From the NCBI RefSeq assembly GCF_048403405.1, contig NZ_CP183130.1: a stretch of 16,403 nt of DNA. One strand, given 5' to 3'. Positions 10,953-12,837 of the stretch are shown in pieces; positions within the stretch are counted from its first letter, which is position 1, and each line of letters begins with the position of its first letter. The translations under genes and the position numbers were made by a program. This stretch comes from Escherichia coli (GTDB taxonomy: Bacteria > Pseudomonadota > Gammaproteobacteria > Enterobacterales > Enterobacteriaceae). The notes under the pieces were generated by a model. The model did not search any database. It was not told the origin of the DNA and saw only the letters and a program-made list of their open reading frames with translations.

Positions 10953-12071
10953 TTACTGCAGATTTTGGGCTGAGCGGAACCAGCGCCGAAAGCCCCGGAG
11001 GGGCTGGCGATGATTCAGTGCTGAAGGAATGGTGCTGTCTGAGTGCGGCGGTGGCGCAGCCAGCGTCAGTTCAAGCTGACGCAACTCCCTGATGGCCAGT
11101 CGCTTCAGATGGTCATCGGAACAAAAATAGGCTTCATCCGGCGGCAGACGCTTCCGGAGATACTCAGCCATCTCATAAATCTGCTGGTCAACAGGTAATT
11201 TCTTCAGGCGGTTGGCACGCTTGCTGGCTGCGGCTTTTTCTCGGCGCTTCTTCAGGGCATCCTGGCTGCGCTGCAGATACCAGCGTTTTCTGGCCGCATG
11301 AACGGAGATATCTTCATCCTCACGCAGAACACCTTCCCGAATGAGCTGCTGGCGGATTTCACTTTCACGCAGTCGTTTCTGCTGCTGTTCGTGAAGTTTT
11401 ACCATGTCGACGCCCAGCATCTGCCAGCCTGCCGGTGTTATCCAGACGTAACGTGGCAGACGCTGACGATGTTCACGGTCCCACATTGTTTCCTCTGACA
11501 CCCCCAGCACACCAAAGCGCACCTGTTCGGCCAGCAGACGGGAAAGACGGGAGACCGTCACTTCCAGTTCCGGAATAACATGTCCCTCGCTGTCTTTCGG
11601 GCTGATTTCTTCAGCCAGCCGAGTGACGCTCATCCCCACGGTATGTGTGCCGGCATCACTGAAGCTGACCAGAACCGGCCAGATGGCATCGAGGAGACGT
11701 TGTTTTTCCGGCCGGAAAGCGTATTTGCGACCGACGAACGTCCGTTTCTGTACATAAAAAGGATGCCGCGACATGCGCATGCGCAGGCTCTGCTCGCCGG
11801 TCACCGGGTCCTTTTTCACCAGACGGTTATAGGCGTGCCCGAGCTGCCCTTTCAGCGCTTTATAGCGCTCAGGACGATACCAGGACGGATTTTCGCATTT
11901 GGGTTTGGTGGAGTGCTCACCGCGACGGCGCTTCGTGCGCTTCCTTTCCGGTTCAACCAGGAAAGTGGTCGCCCTTCCCGCTTCATAGTCTTCCCAGAAA
12001 CGGATCTGCTCTTCGGGTGCTAACTGACTCCAGTGTACTGCGTTATATGAAGTATTCTTCAGACCTGCCAC
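10953..12071 (-). CDS. repA: RepA replication initiator, IncFII/IncI/IncB RepA family (start uncertain: GTG at 12071 or GTG at 12116)
   Basis: Long ORF (387 aa from the upstream GTG at 12116; 372 aa from the GTG at 12071). Central segment LLDAIWPVLVSFSDAGTHTVGMSVTRLAEEIS parallels R100 RepA1 (AIDALLQGLCFHYDPLANRVQCSITTLAIECGL). The 12071 start is favoured because the leader-peptide ORF stops 10 nt downstream of it and a CGCC element lies just upstream. Confidence 0.8.
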   Translation of the reverse strand: MAGLKNTSYNAVHWSQLAPEEQIRFWEDYEAGRATTFLVEPERKRTKRRRGEHSTKPKCENPSWYRPERYKALKGQLGHAYNRLVKKDPVTGEQSLRMRMSRHPFYVQKRTFVGRKYAFRPEKQRLLDAIWPVLVSFSDAGTHTVGMSVTRLAEEISPKDSEGHVIPELEVTVSRLSRLLAEQVRFGVLGVSEETMWDREHRQRLPRYVWITPAGWQMLGVDMVKLHEQQQKRLRESEIRQQLIREGVLREDEDISVHAARKRWYLQRSQDALKKRREKAAASKRANRLKKLPVDQQIYEMAEYLRKRLPPDEAYFCSDDHLKRLAIRELRQLELTLAAPPPHSDSTIPSALNHRQPLRGFRRWFRSAQNLQ

Positions 12072-12148
12072 AAGCTGTCGCTTATGGCGGAGCGATTGTG
12101 CCGTGTATTTATACACTGCACAGGGTTGAATCTCTGGTACGGTTTCAT
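12059..12148 (-). CDS. Putative 29-aa leader peptide (RepY/RepB-like) translationally coupled to repA
   Basis: ATG at 12148 to TGA at 12059-12061 encodes MKPYQRFNPVQCINTRHNRSAISDSLWQV. It overlaps the repA start region, consistent with leader-peptide coupling described for IncI/IncB replicons. Weak RBS; inferred from position only. Confidence 0.4.
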   Translation of the reverse strand: MKPYQRFNPVQCINTRHNRSAISDSLWQV

Positions 12149-12161
12149 ATATACTTATCCC

Positions 12162-12232
12162 GTATTCTGTGAGGCCCCCATTATTTTTCTGCGTTCCGCC
12201 AAGTTCGAGGAAAAATAGTGGGGGTTTTCCTT
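12162..12232 (+). ncRNA. Putative antisense copy-control RNA (Inc RNA/RNAI-like): long hairpin plus U-run antisense to the repA leader
   Basis: 15-bp stem CCCCCATTATTTTTC (12175-12189) / GAAAAATAGTGGGGG (12210-12224) with a 20-nt loop, followed by TTTTCCTTT. Candidate promoter TTGAAT (12126-12131) and TATACT (12150-12155). On the repA mRNA strand the loop reads ...UUGGCGG..., and a CGCC element lies upstream of the repA GTG (plus 12086-12089), matching the GGCG/CGCC pseudoknot logic of IncI/IncB control. Ends approximate. Confidence 0.5.
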
Positions 12233-12837
12233 TATGGTCTTCTGAAACTTTTTTCAGCCTTCCGGCACCGGCAAACTGCCGTCGTTTCTGCCATACGTCC
12301 TGAATGCCTTATGGCGCATTCTGCCGTTTTCTGGCTTTCCGGACCGCGAGGATCCCAAAAGCCACTGAATAACGATCCGCAATATACCCCTTTTCCACCG
12401 CTTTGAAAAGCCGACACGATTTCTCAGAGTTACAGTTGCCCTCTTTAACCCCCTAAAAAGCGTCGTTTTTTTGAACTCTGTCAAAAAAATGAACAATTTC
12501 AGCAAACGATCTTTTATGCTGCTTTTTTCTTCTTTTCCAGTAGAAGAGATCGCCGAATTTTTTTAAACGATCTAATATCCCGCACACAACATCAAATACA
12601 GAATAATATTCTGTCTTATCAAATATAACGATCTATTCAACTGCTTATCTTCGCTCTTGCCACAGATACATCCTTATGTGATATATTTTCCAGCCATTAA
12701 TCCTGTTTGCAGGAGTTGTCGGTTTTCGCCCGCCTCGAAACCGTCCACAAGGCTTACAAGAGTGCGTAAATCATGTGCCTGTCAGAACTGCAGGCCAGGC
12801 TGAACGTGGGTCAGCCGCTGTTTCCGACACATGCTTT

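Follow-up and report, generated by a model that had tools for sequence, protein, structure and literature searches.

A 16,403-nucleotide (nt) stretch of Escherichia coli DNA (contig NZ_CP183130.1 of assembly GCF_048403405.1; hereafter the window) carries on its minus strand a plasmid replicon of the I-complex, and the leader of its initiator gene, repA, holds a small distal hairpin that a comparison across plasmids shows to be, at the level of sequence, an RNA structure under selection throughout the IncFII/I-complex replicon superfamily. The region as a whole is, as far as can be read from the DNA, a pseudoknot-activated, antisense-controlled replication system of the IncI/IncB (I-complex) type, a kind already known. 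We put the probability of this reading, which comprises the I-complex identity, the anatomy of the control region and the distal hairpin as a conserved RNA structure, at roughly 85%; what the hairpin does is left out of that figure.

The control region as such belongs to textbook plasmid biology, and an earlier note, made from the letters of the window alone, had reconstructed this known system correctly. What is added here is a covarying, loop-conserved hairpin in the rep leaders of I-complex and IncFII plasmids, which offers a testable lead. These plasmids are the main carriers of extended-spectrum β-lactamase, carbapenemase and mcr genes in the Enterobacterales, where copy number determines how many doses of a gene the host receives and what fitness cost it bears. 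Should the best-conserved part of the rep leader indeed be an unstudied hairpin, it would constitute an extra control point common to thousands of plasmids (the I-type version alone is found in 1902 PLSDB records) and a third layer of plasmid copy-number control.

An I-complex replicon and its control region

The plasmid nearest to the replicon, E. coli NZ_CP032260.1, is 99.5% identical to it over 1.8 kb, is typed as IncI1/B/O, MOBP and MPF_I, and has repA annotated at the matching position (its DNA likewise 99.5% identical); 2128 PLSDB plasmids match the 1.8-kb replicon. Rfam family RF01087 (PK-repZ, the repZ pseudoknot region) aligns to positions 12232–12084 over its full model (1–150) with 188.9 bits (E = 8e-44), the gathering score being 44. 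The window stays below the gathering score of RF01089 (PK-repBA), the family related to the IncB plasmid pMU720, which was matched by a more distant Citrobacter locus (L027). No match to RF00042 (CopA), a family that IncFII loci do score, reaches the gathering score in the window, and no CopB gene lies upstream of repA, where there is instead a divergent gene of the NusG family. RepA shares 94% protein identity with relatives. We assign the replicon to the I-complex because of the RF01087 score, the identity to an IncI1/B/O-typed plasmid and the presence of all the structural elements expected of the PK-repZ type at sequence level (structure I with a UUGGCG loop, a countertranscript, a leader open reading frame (ORF), structure III, CGCC and the type of RepA); nothing counting against this identity turned up. 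A scan of viral contigs for relatives of RepA found none, and the scan of genome contigs gave 10 loci only.

Read in the direction of the rep mRNA, the control region begins with a predicted promoter (12381–12409, minus strand, from a consensus scan) composed of TTTTCA (12409–12404), a 17-nt spacer and TATATT (12386–12381), which places the predicted start of the mRNA near 12374 and gives a leader of about 300 nt. Both hexamers are kept in IncB/O/K, IncI1 and IncI2 replicons and in the Klebsiella plasmid pmk1; the sequence of the spacer varies. Structure I, or stem-loop I (SLI), the target of the antisense RNA, spans 12172–12231 on the minus strand, as delimited by the PK-repZ alignment, an inverted repeat and the leader fold. 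Its arms (12224–12210 and 12189–12175, inverted repeat I2) are 93% complementary, and its UUGGCG loop presents GGCG at 12200–12197. On the opposite strand lies the predicted gene for the antisense Inc RNA, or RNAI, of about 70 nt (12162–12235, plus strand; approximate limits, the start taken from the promoter and the end from the hairpin and U-run). It is preceded by a sigma-70-like promoter, TTGAAT-18-TATACT (12126–12155, plus strand, consensus scan), folds with −34.3 kcal/mol (z = −5.7) and runs into UUUUCCUUU, and thus has the makings of a countertranscript with its own promoter and intrinsic terminator, complementary to structure I.

The leader peptide ORF, of the repY/repB type and kept in I-complex relatives, occupies 12059–12148 on the minus strand (ORF list) and encodes 29 amino acids (aa; MKPYQRFNPVQCINTRHNRSAISDSLWQV), from an ATG at 12148 to a TGA at 12061–12059. 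It overlaps the start of repA by 13 nt, its stop ending 10 nt past the GTG at 12071–12069. Within it, between structures I and III, the fold includes a further hairpin (12097–12122, minus strand; inverted repeat I6, with 12-nt arms that are 92% complementary). The proximal element (12067–12089, minus strand), defined by pair probabilities and complementarity, combines the CGCC pseudoknot partner (12089–12086) with structure III, formed by GCCAUAAGC (12088–12080), GACA and GCUUGUGGC (12075–12067), which buries the GUG start codon with pair probabilities of 0.997–1.0. The segment on the CGCC side (12094–12085) is complementary at 9/10 positions to 12201–12192 (inverted repeat I13), with −13.5 kcal/mol for its pairing to the SLI loop region. 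The repA/repZ initiator gene itself (10953–12071, minus strand; ORF list and relatives) encodes 372 aa from the GTG start. Folded as a whole, the leader reaches −113.6 kcal/mol (z = −6.1), and structures I and III as well as the distal hairpin appear in both the minimum free energy (MFE) and the centroid structures. All the elements that the earlier note had described are there, namely the leader ORF ending 10 nt past the GTG, the long hairpin with a U-run on the opposite strand, and GGCG and CGCC as pairing partners; the arrangement of the IncI/IncB pseudoknot type that it proposed also stands, given the Rfam score and the typed nearest plasmid.

Transcription from the conserved promoter (12409–12381) would yield the rep mRNA, on which structure I would display UUGGCG as the target of the antisense RNA. 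In the mechanism as reviewed, structure III opens when a ribosome reaches the end of the leader ORF and terminates; CGCC and GGCG then pair, the resulting pseudoknot holds the weak repA start accessible, and the antisense RNA prevents both the pseudoknot and the translation of the leader (PMC4705826). By its near-identity to characterised plasmids, repA in the window probably depends in the same manner on leader translation and the pseudoknot, and is probably inhibited by the antisense RNA.

A conserved hairpin in the distal leader

The earlier note had singled out an octamer (GCCATAAG in the DNA, GCCAUAAG in the mRNA) that it saw both next to the repA start and in the loop of a second hairpin. 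Both copies are present, at 12088–12081 and 12315–12308 on the minus strand, and they are the only two in the window; its coordinates, however, need shifting by 2 nt for the proximal copy and by 1 nt for the hairpin, which lies at 12321–12302 and not 12322–12303. The exact repeat is the 9-mer CGCCAUAAG (direct repeat D11; distal copy 12316–12308), which exists because the closing C and 8-nt loop of the distal hairpin read the same as the pseudoknot arm and the structure III 5′ arm combined. The standard model accounts in full for the proximal copy, with CGCC as the pseudoknot arm and GCCAUAAGC as the structure III 5′ arm. By itself the repeat is statistically unremarkable, since at least two copies of the 8-mer occurred in 19/200 shuffles of the window and several other exact direct repeats of 8–9 nt lie within the same 800 nt. 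The feature that exceeds chance is the distal hairpin: it folds in both the MFE and centroid structures with a pair probability of 0.62, is strongly conserved and has a covarying stem.

The hairpin (12302–12321, minus strand; identified from the leader fold, conservation and covariation) consists of GAAUGC (12321–12316), the loop GCCAUAAG (12315–12308) and GCAUUC (12307–12302), with a z-score of −3.1 for the local fold. A competing alternative (p = 0.32) pairs GCCAUA of the loop with the UAUGGC of UAUGGCA (12289–12295, minus strand), which adjoins the hairpin on its 3′ side; the AUGG within this segment is kept in I-type lineages and starts a short, non-conserved ORF (20 aa, stop at 12234–12232). 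As the earlier note had supposed, the second copy of the motif falls outside the standard model: RF01087 ends at 12232, and no Rfam family matches 12225–12430 even at E ≤ 10, where only noise is returned.

Across 11 aligned I-complex leaders (IncB/O/K-like, IncK2/Z and IncI1-like), a 30-nt block around the hairpin is nearly invariant, the sole change inside the hairpin being an A to G that converts an A-U pair to G-U. Its flanks carry a 7-nt insertion, deletions of 8 and 2 nt, and many substitutions, and the megablast similarity of IncI1 plasmids to the window stops at 12327, precisely the 5′ edge of the block. A 50-nt query around the hairpin retrieved the 1902 PLSDB records cited above; in the weakest matches that we inspected, differences were confined to loop position 1 (G to A) or to positions beyond the hairpin. 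Two IncI2 loci (L017 and L029) carry it with no more than an A-U to G-U change, and in Klebsiella pmk1 (L016), whose IncFII-family RepA is 26% identical to that of the window, it is identical at 20/20 nt. In the alignment of the IncB/O, IncI1, IncI2 and pmk1 leaders the hairpin is the most conserved 20 nt, with 19/20 columns invariant, as compared with at most 10/20 for each of structure III, the base of structure I, the target loop and the −10 box. The earlier note had allowed that the second motif might prove not to be conserved; it is conserved. The distance from the −10 box to the hairpin ranges from 42 to 79 nt in these four lineages (28–79 nt with the IncFII-type replicons included), and this variable spacing speaks for a transcript element and not a promoter element. 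In an IncI2 plasmid, 5′ RACE placed the start of the repA mRNA at −253 (PMC8053102); transferred to L017, this position lies about 20 nt upstream of the hairpin.

A counterpart is found in IncFII-type replicons, that is, those with CopB, CopA and tap, as a GCCAC-GCCNUAAG-GUGGC hairpin about 28 nt past the −10 box of the repA promoter. It was seen in E. coli, Raoultella, Enterobacter, Entomohabitans, Salmonella, Yersinia pestis pMT, Y. enterocolitica, Serratia, Klebsiella and R100. The loops observed are GCCGUAAG, GCCAUAAG, GCCUUAAG and GCCGUGAG, with the consensus GCCNURAG, and the window hairpin at 12321–12302 has all the marks of the motif: a stem of 5–6 base pairs (bp), a closing C-G, the consensus loop and a position between the promoter and the antisense target. 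Among 12 distinct hairpins, 90% of the cells are standard pairs, against 19–49% in slid registers. Between the stem types GAAUGC/GCAUUC and GCCAC/GUGGC, 4–5 of the 6 pairs differ on both sides, and the closing C-G is invariant. Locus L027 has a possible third stem type, GGGCGU-GUCCGGUAAG-ACGCCC, and the distant replicons L015, L023 and L022 have no clear equivalent of the hairpin; these four loci were excluded from the covariation count.

Neither the IncFII replicons, where the corresponding sequence is GCAUUGUAAGUGC or GCAACAUAAGCGC, nor Klebsiella pmk1 have GCCAUAAG adjoining repA. Because both keep the loop without a proximal copy, the role of the hairpin is independent of the repeat, and the emphasis that the earlier note laid on the repeat was therefore misplaced.

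Some observations weigh against our reading of the hairpin as a selected, and possibly new, RNA structure. The covariation comes down to two stem types, which amounts to one evolutionary switch plus two independent wobble variants, and within each family the stem sequence is frozen. As to novelty, the hairpin is absent from Rfam and from the open-access papers searched, and the primary studies of 1987–2002 on the leaders of ColIb-P9, pMU720, R1 and NR1 may already contain a description or a deletion of it.

Several other identities for the hairpin were considered and rejected. It is not a terminator: the sense strand has no U-tract, and on the antisense strand a U-rich run 5 nt past the stem is confined to B/O/K, IncI1 and IncFII having none. 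An ORF ending at the UAA of the loop is conserved in neither start nor length, and the peptide from the AUG at 12294 would have 20 aa here, 10 aa in IncI1, 41 aa in IncI2 and 2 aa in pmk1. The extended stem suggested by the local fold, GCCA (12335–12332) with UGGC (12293–12290), is not kept in IncI2 or pmk1. An H-type pseudoknot between CCAU of the loop and the downstream AUGG is possible in I-type leaders, with no linker between stem and helix, and is unsupported by IncFII. Coding on the plus strand by a 62-aa ORF (12218–12406) was set aside on account of indels between lineages.

The distal region also resembles other parts of the control region. CAGAAUGCGCCAUAAG (12323–12308, the 5′ arm and loop of the distal hairpin) is identical at 13/16 positions to CAGAAUACGGGAUAAG (12169–12154, both on the minus strand), which lies directly 3′ of structure I at the ribosome-binding site of the leader ORF, and the succession GCCAUAAG...UAUGGCAG in the distal leader recalls GCCAUAAG...UGUGGCAG at the repA start. 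These resemblances may reflect an old internal duplication or chance. A third AUAAG, at the ribosome-binding site of the leader ORF (12158–12154), was discarded, as it is not kept in IncI1, IncI2 or IncFII.

Possible roles of the hairpin

The idea that we favour, tentatively, is that the hairpin is a cis-acting modulator whose loop pairs with the UGGC of the antisense target. When each leader was scanned for partners of the loop in 10-nt windows, the UGGC of the structure I or CopT loop was complementary to GCC(A/G) of the hairpin loop in every lineage scanned, over 4–5 bp and with about −6 to −6.7 kcal/mol, so that the competing pairing site envisaged by the earlier note survives in this weaker form. 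The closing C and GCCA of the hairpin make up the same CGCCA that is found in the loop of the antisense RNA and in the proximal arm, and the change of the IncI2 target loop from GGCG to GGCA falls outside the 4 bp. The loop would thus mimic CGCCA and pair transiently with the UGGC of structure I during transcription of the leader, and this loop:loop contact may tune how readily the antisense RNA and the pseudoknot partner gain access to the structure I loop. More broadly, the hairpin could possibly be an uncharacterised regulatory RNA of the whole superfamily, better conserved than the antisense target itself, with its loop contacting either UUGGCG or a host factor.

A number of points count against the loop:loop contact. 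It would span only 4–5 bp, and the invariance of both partners precludes a covariation signal; a search for UUUUGCG as a putative R1 target loop, made as a test of covariation, gave no exact match, the best matches, R100 included, reading UUUGGCG. The conserved URAG half of the loop is left unaccounted for, and three natural IncI1 variants (L018, L019 and L020) have an A at loop position 1, which reduces the pairing to 3 bp. The contact is also weaker than that of the proximal partner (−6.6 vs −13.5 kcal/mol), and, being itself a pseudoknot, it is beyond the folding tools used.

Conservation of the entire loop would be accounted for if the loop were instead recognised by a host protein or the 30S subunit, perhaps together with a short ORF directly 3′, like the 7k frame of R1, an explanation that we regard as conceivable but doubtful. 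A stem conserved in structure only with a loop conserved in sequence is the usual signature of a protein-binding hairpin. An AUG lies 3′ of the hairpin in 11/11 lineages, at +18 to +21 from the loop start in the I-type and at +28 in the IncFII-type, where, R100 included, it opens a 7k-like frame; translation of 7k in plasmid R1 is reported to counteract the CopA-CopT interaction (Wagner et al. 1987, cited in PMC5304414). Moreover, the loop and 3′ arm of the IncFII hairpin, UAAGGUGG, are among the three best matches to the anti-Shine-Dalgarno sequence in the leader (−7.5 kcal/mol), whereas the I-type loop is not among the six best in its own. Further against this explanation, the ORFs after the hairpin vary from 2 to 41 codons, with unrelated sequences and ends, and the Shine-Dalgarno-like motifs stand at uneven distances from the AUG. 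No candidate protein emerged; FopA and PcnR are reported to bind elsewhere in the leader (PMC7491321, PMC8053102).

It is rather unlikely that the hairpin is a passive element of folding or stability, one that insulates structure I from upstream mispairing or slows decay and whose loop is kept for its own stability; the notion that this loop could be a C-G-closed NURA tetraloop with two bulged bases is, in our estimate, equally unlikely. The local fold is stable, and the alternative GCCAUA:UAUGGC pairing described above makes the region a folding node; in the IncFII loops, the inner part, C(GUAA)G or C(GUGA)G, would qualify as a GNRA tetraloop, but the I-type (AUAA) and Serratia (UUAA) loops are not GNRA. 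Generic insulation, in turn, needs no invariant loop and would leave G1 and C2 of the loop without a role, and at 28–79 nt from the −10 box the hairpin probably lies too deep in the transcript, counted from the 5′ end, to protect it as a terminal hairpin would, given how 5′-end-dependent decay generally works.

Competition between the two copies of GCCAUAAG, the role closest to that proposed by the earlier note, appears improbable. The distal copy would pair with CUUGUGGC, the structure III 3′ arm that holds the start codon, as an additional layer specific to the I-complex; in a variant held to be just as improbable, the neighbouring UAUGGCAG would pair with the proximal CCGCCAUA. The complementarity itself is considerable: the distal loop and CUUGUGGC form 8 bp, with −10.1 kcal/mol as bare 8-mers and −12.0 in the 10-nt window scan, and CUUGUGGC is the best partner of the loop anywhere in the leader for IncB/O, IncI1 and IncI2. 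UAUGGCAG (12295–12288), for its part, is complementary at 8/9 positions to 12091–12083 (inverted repeat I21), and the distal region resembles the repA initiation region (GCCAUAAG ... RUGGCAG). However, the hairpin and its loop are kept in pmk1 and IncFII, where a partner of the CUUGUGGC type is absent. Structure III, adjacent, 9 bp long and worth −13.5 kcal/mol, forms with a probability of about 1.0, and nested folding gives the distal pairing zero. An 8-nt closed loop cannot make an 8-bp helix unless the hairpin opens, a distal pairing with the start region would still mask the GUG, and the repeat is within chance expectation.

A DNA-level element, with the inverted repeat upstream of repA acting as a protein operator or cruciform, is very improbable: the repeat is a perfect one of 6 bp in an intergenic control region, with a stem frozen within each family, but its half-sites change together between families around a constant 8-bp spacer, the reverse of how operators behave, the G-U wobble variants L003 and L031 keep the RNA pairing and lose the DNA symmetry, and the promoter distance varies between 28 and 79 nt.

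Characterised relatives, chimeric replicons and neighbouring features

The repY-repZ-inc region of the IncI1 plasmid ColIb-P9 (compare RF01087) is near-identical to the window from structure I to the repA start, and shares with it the UUGGCG loop, an antisense RNA of about 70 nt, the 29-codon leader ORF running over the GUG start, structure III and the GGCG/CGCC pair; IncI1 plasmids also carry the distal hairpin, which lies outside both the Rfam model and the mechanism as reviewed (PMC4705826). The differences are in the structure I stem, the determinant of incompatibility, in the leader upstream of 12327, which cannot be aligned by megablast, and in RepA, which is 29 aa longer in the window. 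This last difference stems from the 3′ end of repA (11040–11045, minus strand), where the window reads CAC TCA GAC and six relatives read CAC TAG AC; the 1-nt insertion removes the TAG stop, so that the frame runs on downstream of repA to give 372 aa instead of 343. Real variation or a sequencing error could account for it.

With respect to the repB-repA-RNAI region of the IncB plasmid pMU720 (RF01089), the nearest plasmid of the window belongs to the IncI1/B/O cluster of MOB-suite; within the I-complex, IncB/O is a possible assignment. Work on pMU720 by Praszkier and Pittard (cited in PMC10286972 and PMC4705826) reportedly established SLI, SLIII, the pseudoknot and translational coupling by reinitiation, which is the same class of mechanism.

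The CopA-CopT-tap-CopB systems of the IncFII plasmids R1 and R100 (NR1) share with the window a homologous RepA family, a UUGGCG target loop, a leader peptide coupled to a repA with a GUG start, and, between the repA promoter and the antisense target, a leader hairpin whose loop has the same motif. They differ in the GCCAC/GUGGC stem, in the missing GCCAUAAG next to repA, and in having the CopB gene and the CopA family that the window lacks. To our knowledge, no GGCG/CGCC pseudoknot has been described for IncFII.

In the IncI2 plasmid pHNSHP45 (repR-repA), the leader peptide is likewise coupled to repA, there is an antisense RNA, and the mRNA starts upstream of the position of the hairpin, but PcnR binds a stem-loop at the repR start and not the distal hairpin (PMC8053102). 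In locus L017 the distal hairpin and both copies of GCCAUAAG are present, and the structure I loop differs, reading UUGGCA. According to the authors of that study, no IncI1-like pseudoknot was found in IncI2 (PMC8053102). In L017 (IncI2 plasmid pDETEC35, about 650–850), however, the target loop reads UUGGCAGAG and the repA-start side CUCUGCCAUAAG, and the two sides of the pseudoknot carry matching changes, UGGCAGAG and CUCUGCCA. Because this 8-bp complementarity is altered on both sides relative to GGCG/CGCC, the comparison suggests, contrary to that report, that IncI2 also forms a pseudoknot.

Among the relatives are replicons that combine parts of both types. Klebsiella sp. PL-2018 pmk1 (L016, 490–2607) is a chimera in which an I-complex-like NusG-family gene, promoter and distal hairpin are combined with a target loop of the IncFII type, a tap-like leader ORF and a RepA of the IncFII family; beside its 26% identity to the window RepA, this protein is 70–76% identical to thousands of IncFII RepA. 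Plasmids of E. coli (L013), Raoultella (L014) and Salmonella (L015) encode RepA of the I-complex type, with 94%, 70% and about 75% identity, respectively. L013 and L014 are the reverse chimera, with the I-complex-type RepA behind IncFII-type CopB/CopA/tap and, in L013, a junction at the repA start codon (GUGGC). L015 has a UUGGCG target loop with CCGCCAUAAG adjoining repA.

Upstream of the rep promoter, a divergent 212-aa ORF (12775–13413, plus strand) corresponds to a gene annotated in the nearest plasmid as a NusG-family transcription antitermination protein, and a gene of this family occupies the same position in B/O/K/Z plasmids and pmk1. Between it and repA, the intergenic DNA contains four copies of GATCGTT on the same strand within 263 nt (12371–12633, minus strand; spacings of 134, 61 and 61 nt), one of which (12371–12377) overlaps the predicted start of the rep mRNA. 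The window holds 8 copies in total, against 2.1 expected, a number reached in 0/200 shuffles. These copies may be Dam sites or sites for a regulator. In IncFII repA promoters, GATCGTT stands directly past the −10 box (TAGATTnCTGATCGTTTAAGG).

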